DNA of 64,000 bases, taken from the NCBI GenBank assembly GCA_005223075.1, contig NJBO01000003.1, positions 81,555 through 145,554 on the forward strand. Reading direction: 5' to 3'. Position numbers and translations under genes: made by a program. Under the pieces are notes generated by a model. It did no database searches and had not been told where the DNA came from. It saw only the letters and a list, made by a program, of their open reading frames with translations. Shown one piece after another: positions 2,817 to 63,270 of the stretch. The DNA comes from a candidate division TA06 bacterium B3_TA06. GTDB lineage: Bacteria > Hydrothermota > Tepidihabitantia > B3-TA06. Each line of letters starts with the position of its first letter. Position 1 is the first letter of the stretch.

Positions 2817-4739
2817 ATGACAGGCAAAAGCTCAAGGTCGGTTGACACCAAAGCGAGGGCAAGCAAGAGATCTCACGATTTTTCGGCACTCTCGCGGAGG
2901 ATACTGCAGTTCGCCAACCGCGGCGCGCCTAGGATTGAGTTCCAGCGCGAGGTCTCAAGGATGCTCATCCGCTTCTCCGGATGCGATGCGGTTGAGCTGC
3001 GCATCACCGACGGCAAGCTGCACTACCGGTGGGAAGCCAGGATGGAACCCAATGAGCGCTTTCAGTTCGAGAAACTCCCCTATATACAGGATGAGAAGGG
3101 GCTGGCGCTCCCATGCCTGCCGGATGGTTCAAGCCTGGAACAAACCTGTAAGATACTGTTAGGTGGTAACTTTGACAGCTCCTATCCTTACTTCACCAAA
3201 ACCGGCAGCTTCTGGACTGGCAACCTGAAGGAGGTGCTGAGTTCCCAAACGGGCGAGGAAACCCCTCCTGATCTGGCGTCTACCGGTGATTACTCCTCAC
3301 TCGCCATGATCCCTTTTGTAATAGACGATAACAATAACGGGCTGATTCAATTAAAAAGCAGAGAGAAGAACTTCTTTACCGTTGAAGAGATAGAGTTCTA
3401 CGAGGGCGTTGCCCAGACCATAGGGATAGCAATGGCAGGCCGCAGAGCACAGACCAAACTGCGTGAGCGCGTCAAGGAACTCTACTGCCTTTACGGGATA
3501 GCCCGACTGGTTGAGGAGCCGGGCATATCTCTTGAGAAGATCCTTCAGGGCATAGCCGATTTGTTGCCACCAGCCATGCGATACCCGGATATAGCCTCGG
3601 CTAGGATAATACTGGATGATAAGGATTACTGCTGCCCGCCGGAGTGTCACGAGACCCGCTACCGGCTGGCCGCGGATATCGTAGTCGAGGGAGTGAAACG
3701 AGGCGTGGTGGAGGTGTTCTACTCAGAGGAGAAGCCTGAGCTTGAGGTGGAGCTTTTCATCGCAGAGGAGCAGAGCCTTCTGGATGCTGTGGCCGCTCAG
3801 CTCGTGCTTATAATCGAACGCAGGCAGTGGGAAGCCGAACGGACCAAGCTTGAGGAACAGCTTCGTCACGCGGATCGCCTGGCTACTCTGGGCCAGCTTG
3901 CAGCAGGCGTGGCACACGAGCTTAACGAACCCCTGGAAGGTGTGCTTGGGTTTGCACAGCTTGCCCGCAAATCCGATGGTCTACCCAAGCAGGCAGGAAA
4001 AGATATCGAGAAGATCGAAAACGCAGCACTTCACGCCAGGGAGGTGGTAAGGAAGCTTCTCATATTCGCCCGTCAGATGCCCACCCATAAAACACTCCTC
4101 AACCTTAACCAGGTGGTGGAAGAAGGACTCTACTTCCTTGAGAGCCGCTGCGAAAAGGAGGGGATCGAGGTGGTGCGCGATCTTGCCGAGGGGCTGGCTG
4201 AGATCACCGCCGACCCGTCACAGCTGAACCAGGTGCTTATCAATCTGGTCGTAAATGGACTCCAGGCAATGTCTGGCGGAGGAAGGCTCACCATAAGAAC
4301 AAGAGCAACAGAGAAGAAGGTTATTCTGATCGTGGAGGATACGGGTGTGGGTATGGACGAGGAGGTTCAAAGACAGATATTCCTGCCCTTCTTTACCACA
4401 AAGGAGGTCGGGCAAGGAACCGGTCTTGGGTTGGCCGTGGTTCACGGGATCGTCACCTCACACGGGGGGACGATCGAGGTTGAAAGCAAGGAAGGCAAGG
4501 GATCACGCTTCACCGTAAAACTACCCCTTACCCGTACCCCTTCGGGGCATTCTCACAATTACTCGAAGCATACGCTCCGTTCAAAAGGGAATAACACCCG
4601 TAACACCCGTACCCCTTCGGGGCATTCTCACAATTACTCGGAGCATACGCTCCGTTCAAAAGGAAATAACACCCGTAACACCCGTAACACGCCTACGCGT
4701 CCTGAGGGACGCGATGAAACTAACAAGGAGACCGAATGA
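2817..4739 (+). CDS. cytoplasmic sensor histidine kinase (tandem GAF-like domains + HisKA + HATPase_c)
   Basis: H-box (LAAGVAHELNEPL), N/G boxes (NLVVNGLQAM, EDTGVGM, GTGLGLAVVHGI). No transmembrane segments are seen. The C-terminal tail is encoded by repeat DNA. The stop overlaps the start of the downstream response regulator. Confidence 0.85.
   Translation: MTGKSSRSVDTKARASKRSHDFSALSRRILQFANRGAPRIEFQREVSRMLIRFSGCDAVELRITDGKLHYRWEARMEPNERFQFEKLPYIQDEKGLALPCLPDGSSLEQTCKILLGGNFDSSYPYFTKTGSFWTGNLKEVLSSQTGEETPPDLASTGDYSSLAMIPFVIDDNNNGLIQLKSREKNFFTVEEIEFYEGVAQTIGIAMAGRRAQTKLRERVKELYCLYGIARLVEEPGISLEKILQGIADLLPPAMRYPDIASARIILDDKDYCCPPECHETRYRLAADIVVEGVKRGVVEVFYSEEKPELEVELFIAEEQSLLDAVAAQLVLIIERRQWEAERTKLEEQLRHADRLATLGQLAAGVAHELNEPLEGVLGFAQLARKSDGLPKQAGKDIEKIENAALHAREVVRKLLIFARQMPTHKTLLNLNQVVEEGLYFLESRCEKEGIEVVRDLAEGLAEITADPSQLNQVLINLVVNGLQAMSGGGRLTIRTRATEKKVILIVEDTGVGMDEEVQRQIFLPFFTTKEVGQGTGLGLAVVHGIVTSHGGTIEVESKEGKGSRFTVKLPLTRTPSGHSHNYSKHTLRSKGNNTRNTRTPSGHSHNYSEHTLRSKGNNTRNTRNTPTRPEGRDETNKETE
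4531..4700. repeat. two tandem 75-bp in-frame repeats (each with CCCCTTCGGGG hairpin) ending in ACCCGTAAC nonamer repeats; forms C-terminal tail of histidine kinase
   Basis: The period is 75 bp (4531 vs 4606). It encodes TRTPSGHSHNYS[K/E]HTLRSKGNNTRN twice, then NTRNT. Confidence 0.8.
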
Positions 4740-6073
4740 CGTCACCTGAAAGTGAACGCATCCTGATAGTAGATGACGCTGTTGATACCCTGGAGGTCCT
4801 ACAGCGTAATCTGGCATCACAGGGCTATCAGGTCTTTACCGCGCAAAACGTGCCGGAAGCCTTAAGGTTGCTTGAAGACACCCAGGTTGATCTGGTGATA
4901 ACCGATTTAAAGATGCCCGGGGCAAGTGGCCTGGATCTGGTGCGATACGTGCGGGAGAACCTTGCGGACACCGAGGTGATGATGATTACAGGATATGCCA
5001 CCGTAGAGGGTGCTGTTCAGGCGGTAAAGCAAGGGGCCGAGGAGTATCTTTCAAAGCCCTTTACCGACGAGGAGCTTTTCTTGGCGGTAAGAAAGGCGCT
5101 TGACAAACTACGTATGCGCAGGGCCGCGCAGGTATCCGAGGATATCCCGTCGCCTCATGGGATAATCGGCTCCTCAAAGGTCATGCGCGAGGTCTTCGGC
5201 GCCATCCATAAGGCGGCGTCAACCCCGGCTACGGTGCTCATCACAGGGGAAAGCGGCACTGGCAAGGAGCTTGTGGCCAGGGCTATCCACTACTCAAGCC
5301 CACGTGCCTCACCACCCTTCGTGCCTATCAACTGCGGGGCTATACCGCATGAACTCCTGGAATCGGAACTCTTCGGGTATGTTAAGGGTGCGTTTACCGG
5401 CGCGGCAACGACCAGGGCAGGTTTCTTTCAAACCGCAGACGGCGGCACCATCTTCCTTGACGAGATCAGTGAAACAAGTCCGGCCATGCAGGTTAAGCTC
5501 TTGCGGGTGCTGCAGGACAAGGAGATCTTCATGCTCGGCTCACGAAAATCCGAAAAGGTTGATGTGAGGATTATTGCCGCAACCAATAAAGACCTACAGG
5601 CCCTTGTCAAAAAGCAAAACTTCAGGGAGGACCTTTACTACCGCCTCAACGTCATTACCATTGATCTTCCACCGCTGCGGGAGAGGGATGACGACATACT
5701 CCTGATGCTGCGACATTTTACGGAAAAGTTTGCAGAGGAGCTTGGCAAACCCACACCTAGCTTCTCTGACGAAGCGCTTGAGGTTCTAAAGAACTACCAC
5801 TGGCCCGGTAACGTGCGGGAACTCGAGAACGTAACCCAACGGTTGGTGGTGATGGTGGAGGGGGATACGATAGATGTTAAGGATTTGCCGGCACTTATGC
5901 GCTTTTCTCCAAAGGCTCAGGGATTTGAAAGGACCTTGGCCGAGGTGGAGGCAGAACACATACGCAACGTGTTGGCAAGCGTTAACGGCAACAAAACCAA
6001 AGCAGCAGAGATACTCCAAATCGACCGAAAGACCTTGCGCGAAAAACTCAGGAAGATGGAAGAATCCCAGTAA
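4736..6073 (+). CDS. sigma-54-dependent response regulator (NtrC family: REC + AAA+ sigma-54 activator + Fis-type HTH)
   Basis: REC domain (D in VITDLKMPG), Walker A (GESGTGKE), GAFTGA motif present, C-terminal HTH (KTKAAEILQIDRKTLREKL). Confidence 0.9.
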   Translation: MTSPESERILIVDDAVDTLEVLQRNLASQGYQVFTAQNVPEALRLLEDTQVDLVITDLKMPGASGLDLVRYVRENLADTEVMMITGYATVEGAVQAVKQGAEEYLSKPFTDEELFLAVRKALDKLRMRRAAQVSEDIPSPHGIIGSSKVMREVFGAIHKAASTPATVLITGESGTGKELVARAIHYSSPRASPPFVPINCGAIPHELLESELFGYVKGAFTGAATTRAGFFQTADGGTIFLDEISETSPAMQVKLLRVLQDKEIFMLGSRKSEKVDVRIIAATNKDLQALVKKQNFREDLYYRLNVITIDLPPLRERDDDILLMLRHFTEKFAEELGKPTPSFSDEALEVLKNYHWPGNVRELENVTQRLVVMVEGDTIDVKDLPALMRFSPKAQGFERTLAEVEAEHIRNVLASVNGNKTKAAEILQIDRKTLREKLRKMEESQ

Positions 6074-6234: not shown

Positions 6235-6250
6235 TGGCACGAATATTGCA
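6235..6250 (+). promoter_or_regulatory. sigma-54 (-24/-12) promoter: TGGCAC-N5-TTGCA
   Basis: An exact match (TGGCACgaataTTGCA) lies ~78 nt upstream of the ATG at 6328, which has AGGAGG as its RBS. It is immediately downstream of the sigma-54 activator gene. Confidence 0.7.
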
Positions 6251-6327: not shown

Positions 6328-6630
6328 ATGCAGACATCAACAGTTCAAGAGACCAAAAAGGCTGTTAAGCCGAAGTATCGGGGGCTTTGCTCTACCTGCA
6401 AGAACGCTGCAACCTGCACCTTTCCTCGTGACCCCGCTCGTCCAATAATGCACTGCGACGAGTTCGACGGCTACGAGGGTCCAAAGACTAGGGTAGTCCC
6501 AAGGGTTGCCAAGCCAGAGGCCGCCGACGAGGTGGAGTTCAAAGGACTGTGCCGCAACTGCGAGAACCGTCATCACTGCGTCTTTCCCAAGCCTGCAGGC
6601 GGTGTTTGGCAGTGCGACGAGTATTGTTAG
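6328..6630 (+). CDS. small Cys-rich protein with internal duplication (2x C-x2-C-x4/5-C...C-D-E-F/Y); putative metal-binding, unknown function
   Basis: A strong RBS precedes the ORF. It has 8 Cys in two similar halves (CSTCKNAATCTFP...HCDEF; CRNCENRHHCVFP...QCDEYC). It is the first ORF after the sigma-54 promoter. Confidence 0.5.
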   Translation: MQTSTVQETKKAVKPKYRGLCSTCKNAATCTFPRDPARPIMHCDEFDGYEGPKTRVVPRVAKPEAADEVEFKGLCRNCENRHHCVFPKPAGGVWQCDEYC

Positions 6631-6671: not shown

Positions 6672-7934
6672 ATGAAAAAGGCGAGCGTTTACGATAACGT
6701 AACCAAGCAGTTTAACAAGGCTGCTGATTTGATGCATCTGGATCCTGAGATCCGCAAGGTACTTGCTAGAACCAACAATGAGGTAATCGTCAACTTTCCG
6801 GTTAAGATGGACGACGGCCACATCGAGATGTTCACCGGTTACCGGGTGCAGCACAACAACGTGCTTGGCCCTTACAAAGGGGGGCTGCGTTTTCACCCGG
6901 CGGTAGACATCGACGAGGTTCGCGCCCTTGCCACCTGGATGACATGGAAGTCGGCCATAGTGAACCTCCCGTTCGGTGGAGCAAAAGGCGGCATCCAGAT
7001 CGATCCATTCAAGTACTCGGCAAGCGAGCTTGAGCACATCACCCGCCGATTCACCTTTGCCCTGGGCTCGAACATAGGGCCTGAGTTCGACATCCCGGCA
7101 CCGGACGTAAACACCAACCCTCAGATAATGGCCTGGATCCTGGATACCTACCTCTCCACCATACCTGCCCACGAGCGTCAGGCGGCAGTCCATGTAGTTA
7201 CCGGCAAGCCTGTCGAGTCGGGTGGGAGCATAGGCCGCAACAAGGCTACTGGCCAGGGTGTGGTCTTTACCATCGAGCAGTGGGCCAAAGATACCAACTT
7301 TGATCTTGAGGGTGCGGCATACTTCGTTCAGGGATTCGGGAACGTGGGTTCCTGGGCGTCCCGTCTCCTCAAACCCCACGGTTCAAAGCTCGTTGCTGTC
7401 GAGGATGTAAGCGGGGCTATTGCCAATCCAAAGGGGATCGATCCCGACGACCTTTATGAGTATACGCAGAAGAATAAGGGATTGATTGGCGGCTACGCAA
7501 AGGCCAAACCTATTGATCACGAAACCTTCCTTGCGACCAAGGCCGACATCTTCATCCCGGCGGCTCTTGAGAACCAGATCACACTAAAGACCGCTCCAAT
7601 GCTTAACGTGAAGCTGGTTGCCGAAGGCGCAAACGGTCCCACCAATCCGGACGGTGATAAGATTCTTAATGAAAAGGGAACCGATCTTCTTCCAGACGTC
7701 CTTTGCAACGCGGGCGGCGTGATCGTAAGCTACTTCGAGTGGCTGCAGAACAAACGCAGCGAGTTCTGGGATCTTGAAGAGGTGGATGGAAAACTGCACC
7801 GCAAGATCGTTGCAGGCTACGAACGCGTTCGCGATACGGCTCGAGAGCACAACATAGACTGGCGAACCGCGGCCTACATCGTCGCTCTCTCACGTCTTGA
7901 AACGGTATACAAGGAACGTGGAATCTTCCCATGA
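6672..7934 (+). CDS. gdhA: glutamate dehydrogenase (Glu/Leu/Phe/Val dehydrogenase family), canonical
   Basis: PYKGGLRFHP and LPFGGAKGGI motifs intact; C-terminal NAD(P)-binding domain (VQGFGNVG). Confidence 0.9.
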   Translation: MKKASVYDNVTKQFNKAADLMHLDPEIRKVLARTNNEVIVNFPVKMDDGHIEMFTGYRVQHNNVLGPYKGGLRFHPAVDIDEVRALATWMTWKSAIVNLPFGGAKGGIQIDPFKYSASELEHITRRFTFALGSNIGPEFDIPAPDVNTNPQIMAWILDTYLSTIPAHERQAAVHVVTGKPVESGGSIGRNKATGQGVVFTIEQWAKDTNFDLEGAAYFVQGFGNVGSWASRLLKPHGSKLVAVEDVSGAIANPKGIDPDDLYEYTQKNKGLIGGYAKAKPIDHETFLATKADIFIPAALENQITLKTAPMLNVKLVAEGANGPTNPDGDKILNEKGTDLLPDVLCNAGGVIVSYFEWLQNKRSEFWDLEEVDGKLHRKIVAGYERVRDTAREHNIDWRTAAYIVALSRLETVYKERGIFP

Positions 7935-7937
7935 GCA

Positions 7938-7994
7938 GCCCCGTAACACCCGTAACACCCGTAACACCCGTAATACACGTAACACACGGTAACA
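7938..7994. repeat. (ACCCGTAAC)n nonamer tandem repeat, intergenic between the two gdh paralogs
   Basis: cccgtaac acccgtaac acccgtaac acccgtaat acacgtaac acacggtaac. Confidence 0.8.
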
Positions 7995-8008
7995 GCAAAC
8001 CGTAAGGA

Positions 8009-9277
8009 GTGATGATGAAGAAGGAAACCGGTTTCTACGGCGACGTTCTTGAGGGGCTCCATAATGCCGCGGATTTGATGAAGCTAGACTGTGAGGTTCT
8101 CAAAATCCTTACCAAGACTACCAACGAGATTACCGTCAACTTCCCGGTAAAGATGTCAAACGGTCTGGTGGAGATGTTCACTGGCTATCGTGTGCAGCAC
8201 AACAACGTGATGGGTCCCTACTCGGGCGGACTTCGCTTTCATCCCTGGGTTGATCTGGGAGAGATGCGCGCGCTTGCTACTGTGATGACGTGTAAGGCGG
8301 CTATCGCCGGTATCCCATTCGGCGGGGCTGCAGGCGGGATCCAGTTCAACCCCTCTGACTACAACTCCTCTGATGTGGAACGAATCACCCGCCGCTTTAC
8401 CTACTCACTTGGCTCGAACATCGGAGCGGAGTACGACATACTCACCTCGGACGTGAACACAAACCCCCAAACTATGGCCTGGATACTGGATACCTACCTC
8501 TCTACCATGCCTCCGGAAAAAAGGCAGGCCAAAACACACGTGGTCACCGGCAAACCCATCCACCTGGGCGGCAGCGTCGGACACGACAAAGCAGCGGGCC
8601 AGGGGCTTGTCTTTGCCATCGAGGAATGGGCAGCTGGTCACCGTTTCGATCTTGAGGGTGCTGCCTACACGGTTCAAGGATTCGGAAGTGTAGGTGTTTG
8701 GACCTCCATCTTGCTCAATCAAAAAGGAGCAAAACTCGTTGCCGTTGAGGATACCTCTGGGCCCATCCTTAACCCGGATGGAATTGATCCTGAAGACCTT
8801 TTCGCCTACGACAAGGAGAACGGACGCATAGCAGGCTACCCCAATGCAAAACCGATAGATCACGAGGCCTTCCTTGCTACAAAAGCCGATATATTCATCC
8901 CAGCCGCGTTGGAGTATCAGATCACCGCCCAGACCGCACCCAAGCTCAACGTCAAGTTGGTGGTCGAGGGAGCCGACTGCCCCTGCGATCGAGATGGCTC
9001 AAAGATCTTGAAGGAGAGGGGAATTGAGGTGCTCCCAGACATCCTGTGCAACTCCGGCGGCGTGATCGTGAGCTACTTCGAGTGGCTGCAGAACAAACGA
9101 AGCGAGCTGTGGGAACTTGAAGAGGTAGACCGCAAACTGCAGAACAAGATGAAGGACGCTTACCACCGGGTGCGCGACCGAGCAGCGGAGTTCAATACCG
9201 ACTGGTGCACCGCCGCACGCATCGAGGCACTTACCAGACTGGAGAGAATCTACAAGAGACGAGGTATCTTCCCGTAA
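8009..9277 (+). CDS. glutamate dehydrogenase-family paralog with substitutions at two conserved lysines (possible pseudo-enzyme or altered specificity)
   Basis: It aligns with the upstream GDH along its whole length. It has PYSGGLRFHP (K to S) and IPFGGAAGGI (catalytic K to A). The true start is probably the ATG at 8012 or 8015, after AAGGAG. Confidence 0.85.
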   Translation: MMMKKETGFYGDVLEGLHNAADLMKLDCEVLKILTKTTNEITVNFPVKMSNGLVEMFTGYRVQHNNVMGPYSGGLRFHPWVDLGEMRALATVMTCKAAIAGIPFGGAAGGIQFNPSDYNSSDVERITRRFTYSLGSNIGAEYDILTSDVNTNPQTMAWILDTYLSTMPPEKRQAKTHVVTGKPIHLGGSVGHDKAAGQGLVFAIEEWAAGHRFDLEGAAYTVQGFGSVGVWTSILLNQKGAKLVAVEDTSGPILNPDGIDPEDLFAYDKENGRIAGYPNAKPIDHEAFLATKADIFIPAALEYQITAQTAPKLNVKLVVEGADCPCDRDGSKILKERGIEVLPDILCNSGGVIVSYFEWLQNKRSELWELEEVDRKLQNKMKDAYHRVRDRAAEFNTDWCTAARIEALTRLERIYKRRGIFP

Positions 9278-9305
9278 CCCGTAACACCGTAACCCGTAAC
9301 ACGGG
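9271..9305. repeat. (CCCGTAAC)n repeat overlapping the gdh paralog stop codon
   Basis: The sequence is cccgtaacccgtaacaccgtaacccgtaacacggg. The TAA stop at 9275-9277 lies inside a repeat unit. Confidence 0.7.
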
Positions 9306-9310
9306 CATAA

Positions 9311-9360
9311 ATTTCCCCTAGAAGGGGTTCAGCTCAAACCAGGTCGGGGCCTGAGCCCCG
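9311..9360 (+). terminator. two GC hairpins (TTTCCCCTAGAAGGGG and CGGGGCCTGAGCCCCG) downstream of gdh operon; candidate terminator / palindromic element
   Basis: The stem-loops are visible directly. The first motif recurs at 61317-61340. Confidence 0.35.
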
Positions 9361-9448
9361 GCCTTTCTCTACACGTAGGTCTTTGTGAATAATACCGAGC
9401 GGATGAGCCTCAGAGGGTCGGGTGTCTGCCCTCAGACCGGGATTTATA

Positions 9449-13428: not shown

Positions 13429-14565
13429 ATGAATAACCTTGCGTTCATAAAACGAGCAGCGCTCGTTATCCTTGCGCTGCTGATGCCCGTAACTGTTACC
13501 TGCAAGAAACAAGCCGGGAATAACAACCAAGTCGAGGAACGGTATCTCATCATCACTGAAGAAGGCGGGGACGAGAAAGAGATAGATGTCACCGGCTGGG
13601 AGCCTGGCGAAGAGTTCGTCTGGTTGAGTGGATTCGGCTACCCCTGGCAAGGTGAAGACAGCCTTGACTACCGTATCGAGGATGGTCTTCTATGGGTGAA
13701 CGGCAAGCTGGTCGGTGCGGACCTTGAAGAGGTCGCGTTCGCCGATCTGTCCAATCCTGAGGAGATAGTTAGCGTTCGCACGGATGCAGAGCATATGTTG
13801 GAGCTGAAGCGATTCCCCAATCTTACTGTAGTATTTCCTTTTGTCATAAAAGATGATGACTTGGCACACCTTAAGGGTTTCACCAACCTTAGGGCGTTGT
13901 ATCTGCTCGGGCCCCTGATCACGGACGCCGGGCTTCGCCACCTTTCAGGCCTCACCAACCTGAGGGAGTTGTATCTGTGGGAGACCGACATCACGGACGC
14001 AGGGTTTGTGCATCTCAAGGGTCTCACCAACCTGAGGGTGTTGAGTTTGTTCGAGACGGATATCACCGACGCCGGGCTTCGCCACCTTGAGGGACTCAAG
14101 AACCTGAGGGTGTTGGGTCTGCTCGGTACCGATATCACGGACGCCGGGCTTGCCCACCTTAAAGGTCTCACTAACCTGAAGGGGTTGTATCTGAACGGCA
14201 CCGATGTCACGGACGCCGGGCTTCGCCACCTTTCAGGCCTCACCAACCTGAGGGTGTTGGATCTGGGGGCCACCGACATCACGGACGCTGGGCTTACGCA
14301 CCTTAAAGGACTCACCAACCTGAGGGAGTTGAATCTGTGGTATACCGCTATCACCGACGCGGGACTTAAACACCTTAAAGGTCTCACCAACCTGAGGGAG
14401 TTGAATCTGCGGAATACCGACATCACGGACGCCGGGCTTCGCCACCTTGAGGGCCTCAAGAATCTGAGGATGTTGGATCTGTGGAGAACCAAGATCACGG
14501 ACGCCGGGGAAAAAGAGTTAAAAAAGGCGCTGCCGGAGTGTGGGATTTACCGTCATTATAGGTAA
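13429..14565 (+). CDS. secreted leucine-rich-repeat (LRR) protein
   Basis: Signal peptide present. There are about 9 tandem 24-aa repeats (LKGLTNLRxLxLxxTDITDAGLxH). Confidence 0.85.
   Translation: MNNLAFIKRAALVILALLMPVTVTCKKQAGNNNQVEERYLIITEEGGDEKEIDVTGWEPGEEFVWLSGFGYPWQGEDSLDYRIEDGLLWVNGKLVGADLEEVAFADLSNPEEIVSVRTDAEHMLELKRFPNLTVVFPFVIKDDDLAHLKGFTNLRALYLLGPLITDAGLRHLSGLTNLRELYLWETDITDAGFVHLKGLTNLRVLSLFETDITDAGLRHLEGLKNLRVLGLLGTDITDAGLAHLKGLTNLKGLYLNGTDVTDAGLRHLSGLTNLRVLDLGATDITDAGLTHLKGLTNLRELNLWYTAITDAGLKHLKGLTNLRELNLRNTDITDAGLRHLEGLKNLRMLDLWRTKITDAGEKELKKALPECGIYRHYR
13849..14497. repeat. about 9 tandem 72-bp coding repeats (LRR units)
   Basis: Near-identical 72-bp units are visible in the DNA. 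The antisense ORFs in the track are artefacts of these repeats. Confidence 0.8.
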
Positions 14566-41190: not shown

Positions 41191-41804
41191 AGCTGCTTTT
41201 GATTCTGTGGGGCGCGGTGATCGGGGTTGAGCGCTGGGTGATCATTACCCCTGGGGAGGAGGTGAACCGGCAGGAGATTTCGAGGTGGGTGGAGGTTTTG
41301 AGAACGGCTGAAAAGGTAGTGGACGATTTCTTCCCAGATCCCTCCGTGGGGGTAGGGTGGGAGAATGGTGTGTTACGGGTGTTACGGGTGGCGCCGTCTA
41401 GCGGGGATTTTGCCGCCTGGACCGGATGCTCGATCTGGCAGGGGGCTGCGTTAAAGAACGGAGAGCTGATCGTTCAGCCCCTGGCTGTTCTTGAACGTCG
41501 CGGGGTGCTTGAGGAGGTAGTGGTTCACGAGTACGTGCACCTTGTGCTTGAACCCTACAACGTCCCCCTTTGGGTGAATGAAGGGCTAGCCGTGATATGC
41601 TCTGGTCAGGTGAGAAAATTCTCACAGGATGCGGAGTTGAAGGATTTAACAGAAGACAAAGCCGAGATAGAAAAGCTGCTTGCAAGCAGTGATACGTTGG
41701 ATTTGCGGCTAGGTTATCTTGCAGCAGCGCGTTTGACTCAGGAAAAAATAGACGGAATAGGACTAGACAGTTTAGTCCGACTAATTAAAGAGGAGGCCTT
41801 ATGA
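41184..41804 (+). CDS. putative HExxH zinc-metallopeptidase-like protein
   Basis: HEYVH is followed by ...NEGLA, a gluzincin-like arrangement. The N-terminus is hydrophobic. The coding region contains an inverted nonamer repeat that encodes VLRVLRV. Confidence 0.45.
   Translation: MVKLLLILWGAVIGVERWVIITPGEEVNRQEISRWVEVLRTAEKVVDDFFPDPSVGVGWENGVLRVLRVAPSSGDFAAWTGCSIWQGAALKNGELIVQPLAVLERRGVLEEVVVHEYVHLVLEPYNVPLWVNEGLAVICSGQVRKFSQDAELKDLTEDKAEIEKLLASSDTLDLRLGYLAAARLTQEKIDGIGLDSLVRLIKEEAL
41369..41392. repeat. nonamer repeat (GTTACGGGT)n, the reverse complement of ACCCGTAAC, inside a coding region
   Basis: tgtgttacgggtgttacgggtggc. Confidence 0.6.
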
Positions 41805-62434: not shown

Positions 62435-63270
62435 GTTCCAAAATCCTGGTTAGCCTTGAGGACGTCAGTGTACGCTTTCAAGAGCTCACGGCTCTTCATG
62501 ATGTGAACATCCAGATAACGGCGGGCTCATCCACGGCGCTCATAGGTCCGAACGGGGGCGGGAAGACAACGCTTCTCAAGGTGATAGCAGGCCTTATCAA
62601 GCCTACCCAGGGAAGGGTGCGTTACTATGATCTCAAGCGCGCCAGGATAGGTTACGTTCCCCAGGAGAGCGTGGTTGACTGGCGCTTCCCTGTGAGTGCC
62701 CTGGATGTGGTGCTCATGGGACGGTACCCGGCTTTAGGGCTCATAAGACGAGCGGGCAGGCACGACCGCGAGATCGCACTTACTATGCTTGCTCGCGTGG
62801 GGCTTAGGGATGTGGCCAAGCGTCCGGTAGGGGCACTATCCGGCGGGCAGAAGCAGCGCGTGGCCATCGCCCGTGCGCTTGTTGGTGAGCCGAAGCTTAT
62901 CCTGCTCGACGAACCCACCTCAGGCGCGGACGTTGAGGCAAAGGACCGTTTCTATTCCCTTATCCGCGAGTTGAAGAAGGAACTTTCCCTCACCATACTG
63001 GTGGCAAGCCACGATCTTGTGGTGGTGCCGAGTTTCGTTGACGATGTGGCCTGCGTGGCGAAGAGTGTGCATCTGCACGCTTGTCCCTCCGAGATCTGGG
63101 ATGAGGAACATTTCCAGCGGTTATACGGGACCCAGATGGAGGCGATCTTCCACGGAAAGGTCCCCCACCGAATGGTTGCACCCCACGCGAAGGCGAAGCC
63201 TTCGCGTGGGGACCCCGCCCGTACCCGTAACACCCGTAACACACCAAAATCGGAGAAGGGGAAGAGATAG
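62431..63270 (+). CDS. znuC: metal ABC transporter ATP-binding protein (ZnuC-like) with repeat-encoded C-terminal tail
   Basis: Walker A is GPNGGGKTT, the signature is LSGGQKQR and Walker B is LILLDEP. The tail ...RGDPARTRNTRNTPKSEKGKR is encoded by the hairpin plus nonamer repeats. Confidence 0.85.
   Translation: MSSKILVSLEDVSVRFQELTALHDVNIQITAGSSTALIGPNGGGKTTLLKVIAGLIKPTQGRVRYYDLKRARIGYVPQESVVDWRFPVSALDVVLMGRYPALGLIRRAGRHDREIALTMLARVGLRDVAKRPVGALSGGQKQRVAIARALVGEPKLILLDEPTSGADVEAKDRFYSLIRELKKELSLTILVASHDLVVVPSFVDDVACVAKSVHLHACPSEIWDEEHFQRLYGTQMEAIFHGKVPHRMVAPHAKAKPSRGDPARTRNTRNTPKSEKGKR
63182..63246. repeat. perfect 11-5-11 hairpin (CCACGCGAAGG-CGAAG-CCTTCGCGTGG) followed by (ACCCGTAAC)n repeats, inside 3' end of znuC-like gene
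   Basis: It is visible directly. It has the same composite structure (GC hairpin plus nonamers) as the HK tail at 4531-4700. Confidence 0.7.

Follow-up and report, generated by a model that had tools for sequence, protein, structure and literature searches.

Analysis of the 64-kb window (that is, the whole 64,000-nucleotide stretch of DNA examined here) revealed two tandem ORFs on the same strand that encode glutamate dehydrogenase (GDH) homologs. The first, GDH1 (6672..7934, + strand, 420 aa), is a canonical glutamate dehydrogenase with the motifs PYKGGLRFHP and FGGAKGGI, and its catalytic set K69, K93, K105, and D145, equivalent to K89, K113, K125, and D165 of the C. symbiosum enzyme, is complete. 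The second, GDH2 (8009..9277, + strand, 422 aa), is a GDH paralog without the catalytic lysine and displays the motifs PYSGGLRFHP and FGGAAGGI. The two proteins align end to end with 67% identity over 419 columns and one gap, and both contain full ELFV_dehydrog_N and ELFV_dehydrog domains, which in GDH2 score 160.3 bits (PF02812) and 214.1 bits (PF00208), far over the cut-offs. GDH1 matches Thermotoga GDH (1b26) with 432 bits and Thermus GdhB (3aoe_A) with 393 bits. GDH2 matches 1b26 over its full length (E = 7.8e-102), and on this sequence match its fold can be regarded as settled, which places GDH2, at the fold level, in the ELFV amino-acid dehydrogenase superfamily. An AlphaFold2 model of GDH2 built from a 13-sequence alignment (A1) had a mean pLDDT of 48.9 and was unusable. 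The start codon of GDH2 is likely the ATG at 8015, giving 420 aa, instead of the GTG at 8009, since an AAGGAG ribosome-binding site overlaps the latter. The spacer between the two genes (7940..7994, + strand) consists of about six copies of the 9-nt unit CCCGTAACA, and a terminator scan of this spacer detected none.

The GDH pair lies downstream of a conserved regulatory module. The module opens with a sensor histidine kinase gene (2817..4739, + strand), identified by the GAF, HisKA, and HATPase_c domains in Pfam/NCBIfam searches and carrying a 75-bp tandem duplication at its 3' end. It is followed by the gene of an NtrC/AtoC-type sigma-54-dependent response regulator (4736..6073, + strand) with Response_reg, Sigma54_activat, and HTH_8 domains and a GAFTGA motif. 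A sigma-54 promoter with the -24/-12 element TGGCACGAATATTGCA (6235..6250, + strand) shows zero mismatches to TGGCAC-N5-TTGCW, the only such match within the window, and is situated 78 nt ahead of the ATG at 6328. This ATG starts the first gene of the sigma-54 operon (6328..6630, + strand), which encodes a small 8-Cys protein of 100 aa with two C-x2-C-x5-C-x12-13-C repeats. The 8-Cys ORF has no Pfam or NCBIfam match; its 28 homologs are all "hypothetical" where named, and its position is conserved.

In related loci, the histidine kinase gene holds the equivalent place, the NtrC/AtoC-type regulator is conserved upstream of the GDH pair, and in 11 of the 15 tandem loci the 8-Cys ORF is preceded, at a distance of 63-99 nt, by a counterpart of the sigma-54 element. 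Wherever upstream sequence was available, the histidine kinase, the sigma-54 activator, and the 8-Cys ORF preceded the GDH pair. Scanning for sigma-70 promoters and terminators around the GDH genes gave nothing useful. Because many genomes carry the kinase-regulator-8-Cys-GDH module but no GDH2, the latter is dispensable for the regulon.

Active-site residues lost and kept in GDH2

An earlier note on this DNA proposed that the second GDH has lost two conserved lysines. In a MAFFT alignment that included the PDB-validated C. symbiosum sequence (1bgv), Ser72 (codon TCG, 8222..8224, + strand) indeed occupies the position of K89, the lysine that binds the substrate γ-carboxylate, and Ala108 (codon GCA, 8330..8332, + strand) that of the catalytic lysine K125; the roles that the note had assigned to these two residues are right. 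The catalytic role of the lysine equivalent to K125 is documented for K102 of AtGDH1 (PMC7326016). The corresponding codons of GDH1 are AAA and AAA, from which those of GDH2 differ by three and two bases, so the two losses do not stem from a single-base error.

The alteration of GDH2 extends to at least nine additional near-invariant columns of the active site or cofactor pocket; the earlier note, which named two residues, understated its extent. Leu145-Thr146-Ser147 (8441..8449, + strand) stands in place of the invariant Pro-Ala-Pro directly ahead of the catalytic Asp148, His192 (codon CAC, 8582..8584, + strand) lies at the position of R205, and Asp323-Cys324-Pro325-Cys326 (8975..8986, + strand) replaces the invariant Asn-Gly-Pro-Thr (C. 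symbiosum N347 to T350), thereby changing the motif GANGPT to GADCPC. Further replacements are N240 to Ser and T209 to Ala. The earlier note saw good conservation throughout the remainder of the protein, the NAD(P) Rossmann domain among it; this holds in part, since the clade of the window keeps the glycines of the Rossmann motif (GFGSVG, GxGxxG) but has replaced R205, T209, N240, N347, G348, and T350, some of which we take to line the nicotinamide pocket. Judged by sequence, the dinucleotide site in the clade of the window combines the intact glycines with T209A, N240S, N347D, and T350C. In the E/Q subgroup of the family, T209, N347, and T350 are kept, and N240 is Lys in 6 of 19 sequences.

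Of the residues expected in an active GDH, the lysine of the GG[SAG]K[GA]G box is Ala108 in GDH2 and the γ-carboxylate lysine is Ser72, whereas the catalytic aspartate D165 (as D148) and the α-carboxylate lysine K113 (as K96) are both retained. With the Rossmann glycines in place, as well as K113, D165, G90/G91, and N373, GDH2 probably still binds ligands.

Distribution, selection, and origin of the K125-less copies

Lysine is found at both the K89 and the K125 column in 87 of 87 canonical relatives. Among the 36 members of the GDH2 clade, K125 is absent in all and K89 in 31, D165 is present in all, and the K113 column holds K in 34 and R in 2. The homology of the two positions was further assessed with a score-shift probe, in which a lysine of the query is changed to alanine and the change in bit score for each PDB target is read as the presence of the lysine; the probe was validated by the K89L mutant 1k89. 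The GDHs of E. coli (4fcc), Pyrococcus (1gtm), Thermotoga (1b26), and Arabidopsis (6yeh) each shifted by -2.3 to -2.8 bits per Lys-to-Ala change, and because either change lowers their scores, these four carry lysine at both positions. The comparison with C. symbiosum, E. coli, and Pyrococcus that the earlier note had suggested therefore comes out in its favor, by alignment for the first and by the probe for the other two. The same is true of its suggestion that the Ser/Ala pair might be sought in other genomes, as the pair was found in independent assemblies (P0001-P0003 and L009). Its recurrence there, together with the lysines of all 87 canonical relatives, shows that the substitution is not a matter of chance. 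Across the family, the K125 column varies (A, Y, H, S, N, or M), and in the window's own subclade the residue has shifted from Y to A. The E/Q group (E in 16/19, S in 15/19) shows almost no other pocket changes, and replacement residues are conserved within subclades.

In each of the 15 loci compared, the K125-less copy was located directly downstream of a canonical GDH gene on the same strand, with a gap of 5-74 nt in 14 of them; it was never seen alone. The labels of the genomes concerned include TA06, Stahlbacteria, WOR-3, and Zixibacteria, besides further uncultured lineages, and the gene is in every case part of a sigma-54 GDH operon. GDH2 shares 64-69% identity with the local canonical GDHs, and databases annotate the GDH2-family genes as "glutamate dehydrogenase".

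GDH2 is under purifying selection, as the earlier note held. In matched genome pairs, several of which are saturated at synonymous sites, GDH2 had dN/dS values of 0.04-0.12 and GDH1 of 0.02-0.09. The GDH2 ORF is intact in all 15 loci, which come from independent assemblies with several phylum-level labels, and 121 of 184 near-invariant GDH columns are kept in all 13 members examined. The amino-acid divergence of GDH2 is approximately twice that of GDH1, and the excess is unevenly distributed, with a ratio of 2.44 in the substrate-binding/oligomerization domain versus 1.42 in the Rossmann domain. Divergence is very high over the first 35 residues; the stretches 121-135, 151-180, 346-375, and 406-420, in which the leucine-site elements discussed below are located, are conserved nearly as well as in GDH1.

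In a neighbor-joining tree, the K125-less copies group together. When 11 active-site columns were masked, the bootstrap value of the whole group was 35/100 and those of three subgroups were 85, 81, and 54. A search for a shared derived residue uniting the K125-less copies outside the active site showed that none exists. The tree is compatible with one origin as well as with two or three. At one locus (L004), the two paralogs share 76% identity, a value consistent with gene conversion as well as with a duplication of their own.

Proposed function of GDH2

The loss of catalytic residues, the selection, the obligate tandem linkage, and the signals for co-transcription are all evident in the DNA itself. 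Given this evidence, we consider it probable (roughly 0.6) that GDH2 is a pseudoenzyme, a paralog co-expressed with GDH1 that serves as a non-catalytic regulatory subunit in mixed hexamers; the hetero-hexamers and the regulation are suggested by the operon structure and by analogy. The earlier note had likewise favored an inactive regulatory subunit in hetero-hexamers, for which GdhA/GdhB of Thermus, as outlined in PMC9570180, provides a real precedent. Lacking the water-activating lysine (C. symbiosum K125), GDH2 would no longer be capable of oxidative deamination; in the lineage of the window, K89, R205, N240, N347, and T350 are missing as well. The 8-Cys ORF, GDH1, and GDH2 would be transcribed together from the single sigma-54 promoter, presumably under the control of the neighboring kinase and NtrC-type regulator. 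GDH2 would then most likely assemble with GDH1 into mixed hexamers, acting as Thermus GdhA does for GdhB, and adjust the turnover of GDH1 to small-molecule effectors that bind at the leucine site between subunits and perhaps also in its own vestigial active-site pocket.

The leucine-site residues of Thermus GdhB are given as R135, D166, and the C-terminal R420/Y423/P424 in PMC9570180. Their counterparts R129, D161, and R418-G-I-F-P422 are invariant in the 13 GDH2 sequences of alignment A1. In ungapped coordinates, GdhB R135 equals GDH1 R126 and GDH2 R129; the mapping of D166 to GDH2 D161 (the D of the DTY motif) assumes a one-residue indel. Since ordinary homohexameric GDHs conserve these residues too, the leucine site does not discriminate between models.

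A more tentative proposal, which we regard as unlikely, is that the dead active site of GDH2 now serves to sense effectors, with a specificity that varies from lineage to lineage. The residues holding the backbone of an α-amino acid (K113, D165, G90/G91, and N373) are kept, K113 as R in 2 of 36 sequences, and each subclade has remodeled the side-chain pocket in a conserved manner of its own, making it acidic (E/S), aromatic (F/Y), or small (S/A). An acidic E/S pocket would favor a basic ligand. In the clade of the window, His192, Asp323, Cys324, and Cys326 are conserved and replace residues that we assume to lie at and around the nicotinamide pocket; this cluster could form a metal- or redox-sensing site working with the co-transcribed 8-Cys protein. 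Were this proposal true, the operon would equip GDH with an allosteric input device that is modular and evolvable, and would thus be more than a copy of the Thermus system.

The same retained residues can be read differently. GDH2 might be a stand-alone ligand sensor, a "trigger" protein rather than a subunit of the GDH1 hexamer, whose dead site binds an amino acid, 2-oxoglutarate, or a dinucleotide and which then signals to a different partner, for instance the 8-Cys protein or one of the two neighboring regulatory proteins (the kinase and the sigma-54 regulator). The loss of the catalytic lysine from a site that keeps its α-carboxylate and α-amino binders would suit such a role, as would the conservation of the replacement residues within subclades despite saturated synonymous sites in several genome pairs, the invariable presence of a regulator and a cytoplasmic GAF kinase in the module that houses GDH2, and the moonlighting precedent of RocG-GltC in B. 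subtilis. However, many genomes have a regulatory module that runs with a single GDH, all 15 loci have GDH2 linked to GDH1, and the interface and C-terminal elements of GDH2 are kept. Moreover, the sole experimentally characterized inactive GDH paralog acts inside a hetero-hexamer according to the account in PMC9570180. A stand-alone sensor is therefore judged improbable.

Less probable still is a neofunctionalized enzyme, in which the GDH fold would support different chemistry or act on a different substrate, catalysis being taken over, for instance, by a Tyr or His that replaces K125 or by the cluster of His, Asp, and two Cys residues. Strong purifying selection on GDH2 and a core clade with concerted, conserved replacements (LTS, H192, and D323-C324-P-C326) would accord with this, and K89 is a specificity determinant that differs in Leu/Phe/Val dehydrogenases. 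On the other hand, the characterized ELFV dehydrogenases all retain the K125 equivalent, to our knowledge, and the best matches of GDH2 are GDHs such as 1b26, compared with 45-49 bits for Leu and Trp dehydrogenases. The residue at the K125 position is not conserved among GDH2 lineages and has changed from Y to A even within the subclade of the window, which disfavors the different chemistry that the earlier note had kept as its fallback. The E/Q group is almost unchanged elsewhere in the pocket, and a common alternative catalytic apparatus is thus lacking. Finally, were GDH2 a decaying copy without function, or an artefact of sequencing or assembly, the missing catalytic residues and the doubled divergence would be explained, but this reading is rejected as highly improbable in view of ORFs that are intact at all 15 loci, taken from independent assemblies with several phylum-level labels, dN/dS values of 0.04-0.12, the near-invariant columns that all 13 members share, and substitutions requiring two to three base changes per codon.

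Regulation of an active GDH by its dead paralog has been experimentally shown only in Thermus. The GDH2 family represents an independently derived family of K125-less and most likely non-catalytic GDH partners in several uncultured phyla, for which Thermus-like regulation is suggested; the recruitment of dead paralogs then appears to be a recurrent route to allosteric control of GDH, an enzyme at a central branch point of carbon and nitrogen metabolism. The pocket variants E/S, F/Y, S/A, H/H, and K/N offer a natural set for studying how effector specificity evolves. The label "glutamate dehydrogenase" may inflate the GDH capacity deduced in metabolic reconstructions from metagenome-assembled genomes, and the conserved, uncharacterized 8-Cys protein is flagged as a member of the GDH regulon.

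Comparison with known systems

Leu/Phe/Val/Trp dehydrogenases resemble GDH2 in having the same fold and a non-basic residue at the K89 position, but they keep the catalytic lysine that GDH2 lacks; with this difference and a similarity of only 45-49 bits, the assignment of GDH2 to this group was rejected. In B. subtilis, the catabolic GDH RocG is expressed from a sigma-54 (SigL) promoter under the NtrC-family activator RocR and also has a regulatory, non-catalytic role in which it binds the transcription factor GltC, and the second paralog, GudB, is inactive in strain 168 owing to a three-residue duplication and is readily reactivated. The present locus shares with it a sigma-54 GDH gene with an NtrC-family activator and an inactive second paralog; it differs in that gudB is not adjacent to rocG and no dedicated dead subunit is known to be kept there by selection.

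As far as we know, the plant GDH isoforms are all catalytically active, unlike GDH2 without its catalytic lysine. The likeness to plants lies in the mixing of paralogous GDH subunits, which is proposed for GDH1/GDH2 and established for the α and β subunits of AtGDH1-3, where the composition of the hexamer is variable (PMC7326016). The AdoMetDC prozyme of trypanosomes, as described in PMC5201418, is a dead paralog that controls the active enzyme through hetero-oligomerization, and it resembles GDH2 in this general logic only, being of unrelated fold and from a eukaryotic system.

The closest parallel is the Thermus GDH (PDB 3aoe), a heterohexamer of four GdhA and two GdhB in which GdhA is inactive and regulatory, as PMC9570180 recounts in summarizing Tomita et al. 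2010 and 2011. Here as there, a catalytically incompetent GDH paralog is encoded beside an active GDH, and leucine-site residues are present in both partners (the second R of TRRF, the D of DTY, and the C-terminal R..(Y/F)P). In the score-shift probe, GdhA (3aoe_E) gained 2.4 bits when K125 of the query was changed to Ala, whereas every lysine-bearing control lost 2.4 to 2.7 bits, which indicates, from score shifts and not from a reading of the GdhA sequence, that GdhA lacks the K125-equivalent lysine as well. GDH2 scores 307 bits against GdhB and 238 against GdhA, and GDH1 393 and 258, respectively. GDH2 is not an ortholog of GdhA and has therefore arisen independently, so that the analogy rests on convergence. 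Whereas GdhA keeps K89 according to the probe, the GDH2 of the window has lost K89, R205, N240, N347, and T350. The complex and its activation by leucine are putative for GDH1/GDH2, and, unlike the Thermus pair, the two genes described here belong to a sigma-54 operon that opens with an 8-Cys ORF and lies next to a two-component system.

Lysine substitutions in the tandem GDH pair

Two glutamate dehydrogenase genes lie on the same strand, 74 nt apart: the canonical GDH1 (6672..7934; 420 aa), with the motifs PYKGGLRFHP and FGGAKGGI, and its downstream paralog GDH2 (8009..9277; 422 aa), which reads PYSGGLRFHP and FGGAAGGI, the difference that the earlier note had claimed. Since an AAGGAG ribosome-binding site overlaps GTG 8009, ATG 8015 is probably the GDH2 start, giving 420 aa, a homolog-like length. 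The proteins share 67% identity across 419 aligned columns (one gap), and the ELFV_dehydrog_N and ELFV_dehydrog domains are complete in both. The top solved structure for GDH2 was Thermotoga maritima GDH (1b26; E = 7.8e-102, full length).

Positions were mapped in a MAFFT alignment of 1bgv, 1b26 and five GDH1/GDH2 pairs, the C. symbiosum reference being an exact match to PDB 1bgv_A (residues 1-449), whose numbering is used below. The substituted sites are homologous to the known GDH lysines, with K89 aligning to Ser72 and K125 to Ala108 of GDH2; K113 and D165 are retained as Lys96 and Asp148. Residues 54-128 of 6yeh aligned without gaps to residues 1-75 of the GDH1 segment, and the 3-residue offset of the 6yeh chain (414 aa vs 411 native) puts Lys102 on the GGAK lysine. 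The K89 and K125 codons are TCG and GCA in GDH2 versus AAA and AAA in GDH1. The loss of two lysines is confirmed as real and non-random.

A constrained family without the catalytic lysine

A search with GDH2 retrieved ten proteins of 72-98% identity, all without both lysines, with the residue pairs S/A, S/Y or F/Y at K89/K125; two remoter matches carried E/S and H/H, and all others, at 69% identity or less, were K/K. In a profile search and species-representative genome scan, 26/162 proteins were non-K/K, and twelve additional tandem-GDH loci were found. The tandem loci are labelled Stahlbacteria, WOR-3, Zixibacteria, 'Ignavibacteria' MAGs and others, one Zixibacteria locus being on a closed 2.7 Mb chromosome. 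NCBI assigns a protein identical to the window GDH1 to candidate division TA06 bacterium B3_TA06. The K-to-S/K-to-A pattern, for which a search of other genomes had been proposed, thus recurs together with further pairs, as a family rather than a single case.

Residues were counted in 36 defective and 87 canonical sequences. K125 was lysine in 87/87 canonical copies and replaced in 36/36 defective ones (by Y, A, H, S, N or M), and K89, likewise lysine in 87/87, was replaced in 31/36 and kept in 5 (the K/N, K/S, K/M subgroup). D165 was invariant in both sets (87/87 and 36/36); K113 was lysine in 87/87 canonical copies and in 34 defective copies, with arginine in 2. The common denominator of the defective copies is the missing catalytic lysine, which was probably lost before the other changes. 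The family is widespread in uncultured phyla, within a conserved sigma-54 module; no account of it was found in our literature searches. In a Bipolaricaulota MAG (locus L083), two canonical K/K GDH genes (3253-5154 and 6686-8239) are separated by about 1.5 kb and lack the associated kinase, regulator or 8-Cys module; a duplicated GDH can therefore be maintained while keeping both lysines.

Compared across identical pairs of genomes, GDH2 had a Nei-Gojobori dN/dS of 0.04-0.12 and GDH1 one of 0.02-0.09, and the dN of GDH2 was about double the GDH1 value. These rates bear out the earlier view that GDH2 is under selection and indicate a functional protein under strong constraint; readings as a pseudogene or artefact are therefore rejected. 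The GDH2/GDH1 divergence ratio was largest (2.44) in the N-terminal catalytic and oligomerisation domain and smallest (1.42) in the Rossmann domain, and segments 121-135, 151-180, 346-375 and 406-420 were nearly as conserved as in GDH1.

Among 184 columns conserved at 97% or more in 112 canonical relatives, 121 were unaltered in all 13 GDH2-type sequences then at hand, and the altered ones concentrate in the active site. The claim of good conservation elsewhere in the protein holds for the GxGxxG glycines and the C-terminus, along with G90/G91, R93 and N373. It fails for the Pro-Ala-Pro preceding D165 (Leu-Thr-Ser in the window GDH2), R205 (His), T209 (Ala), N240 (Ser) and N347-G-P-T350 (Asp-Cys-Pro-Cys), and some relatives have Gly or Asn at S380; the remodelling had been underestimated.

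Neighbor-joining trees placed every defective copy in one long-branched clade, with three subclades that parallel those of the partner GDH1s. With 11 active-site columns masked, bootstrap values were 85, 81 and 54 for the subgroups and 35 for the whole group, and no shared derived residue outside the active site was common to the defective copies. These data fit either one ancient duplication or two or three convergent ones. The E/S copy of locus L004 (4857-7434) shares 76% identity with the GDH1 beside it against only 59-64% with other GDH2s, a pattern suggestive of gene conversion or of a separate duplication event. Between the window and a Stahlbacteria MAG (L009), synonymous divergence was 0.127 for GDH1 and 0.537 for the adjacent GDH2; this contrast may stem from GDH1 having recently recombined or been homogenised, or from its codon usage being strongly constrained.

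A putative sigma-54 operon

The defective copy lay directly 3' of a canonical GDH on the same strand in 15/15 loci compared, with gaps of 5-74 nt and a single exception of 235 nt. Wherever upstream sequence exists, a histidine kinase gene (GAF, HisKA and HATPase domains) comes first, followed by an NtrC/AtoC-like sigma-54 response regulator, a small cysteine-rich gene (8-Cys ORF), GDH1 and GDH2. A perfect sigma-54 element, TGGCAC-N5-TTGCA (6235-6250), the sole zero-mismatch element within the 64 kb window, precedes the 8-Cys ORF by 78 nt, and equivalents occur 63-99 nt 5' of this ORF in 11/15 loci. A consensus scan found no terminator between the 8-Cys ORF, GDH1 and GDH2. Given the element, its conserved counterparts and no intergenic terminator detected, these three genes look like one sigma-54 operon. 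About 70 nt past the GDH2 stop, a GC-rich hairpin (GGGGC-CTGA-GCCCC) with a T-rich stretch (9347-9371), read by eye and not flagged by the consensus scan, may be the operon terminator.

The regulator-8-Cys-GDH module is also found upstream of solitary canonical GDHs (among 68 other loci, the 8-Cys ORF in 17 and the activator in 21); GDH2 is a later addition to an older regulon. The 8-Cys protein (6328-6630; 100 aa), encoded by the first gene of the putative operon, contains two C-x2-C-x5-C-x12-13-C repeats, and matches no family in Pfam or NCBIfam; its 28 homologs are 'hypothetical' wherever named. In other phyla its ORF also occurs upstream of solitary GDH genes, and a second copy lies 3' of GDH in loci L013, L048 and L051.

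Several repeats were also noted. The 9-nt unit CCCGTAACA, with TAA in one frame, forms tandem clusters (23 matches at up to 1 mismatch vs 9.6 expected; 0/100 shuffles reach 23) at 4597-4689, 7940-7994, 9271-9302, 41371-41388 (minus strand) and 63224-63241; sites include the 3' end of the kinase gene, the GDH1-GDH2 spacer and the GDH2 stop codon, which one cluster spans. At the kinase 3' end, a 75-bp tandem duplication (4530-4686; 2.1 copies, 97% match) extends the protein by a repeated block of 25 aa, TRTPSGHSHNYS[K/E]HTLRSKGNNTRN; its length of 640 aa compares with 532-602 aa for full-length kinases called at related loci. Unrelated to the GDH operon, a leucine-rich-repeat protein (13429-14565) has about nine copies of a 72-nt (24-aa) unit.

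Proposed role and comparison with Thermus

As read from sequence, GDH2 combines loss of the catalytic residue, purifying selection, obligate linkage to an intact GDH and co-transcription signals. By analogy with Thermus, GDH2 would join GDH1 in mixed hexamers and serve there as a regulatory subunit. The earlier interpretation, built on analogy, seems largely right. It is possible that GDH2 is instead a stand-alone sensor signalling to the two-component system, but this agrees less well with its being so strictly paired with GDH1. The earlier alternative, an enzyme with new chemistry, is improbable, since the family as a whole conserves no substitute catalytic residue.

The residues holding the alpha-carboxylate and alpha-amino groups of the amino acid are kept in every GDH2 member; the side-chain pocket has been rebuilt by subclade and is conserved within each (E in 16/19 and S in 15/19 in one group, F/Y in another). 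More speculatively, the dead pocket may have been re-used to bind effectors, with specificity differing between lineages. The His/Asp/Cys/Cys cluster of the window clade, seen alongside the 8-Cys protein, could point to sensing of metals or redox state.

The single characterised precedent for an inactive GDH subunit, as PMC9570180 presents it, is that of Thermus thermophilus, a heterohexamer with four GdhA subunits and two GdhB subunits, where the catalytically inactive GdhA mediates leucine activation, the leucine site at subunit interfaces involving R135, D166 and a C-terminal segment. GDH2 as a GdhA ortholog was rejected, GdhB (3aoe_A) scoring higher than GdhA (3aoe_E) at 307 vs 238 bits; the GDH1 scores were 393 and 258 bits. 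GdhA was also probed indirectly by score shifts, a 76-aa GDH1 segment being queried as K/K, A/K and K/A. Changing K89 to A shifted K-bearing controls by -2.6 to -2.8 bits, 1k89 by +0.5 and 3aoe_E by -2.6; for K125 to A, the shifts were -2.4 to -2.7, -2.4 and +2.4. The probe was validated since 1k89, the C. symbiosum K89L mutant used as a control, shifted as expected. By this probe, GdhA appears to keep K89 and lack K125, most likely with Ala there; it would resemble GDH2 in the missing K125, whereas at K89 the window GDH2 has Ser. In ungapped coordinates, GdhB R135 and bovine R207 map to GDH1 R126 and GDH2 R129, and none of the 13 sequences in the GDH2 alignment varies at R129, at the DTY aspartate or in the C-terminal R-G-I-F-P. 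We infer from this analogy a regulatory role for the GDH2 family, which would be an independently derived version of the inactive regulatory GDH subunit.
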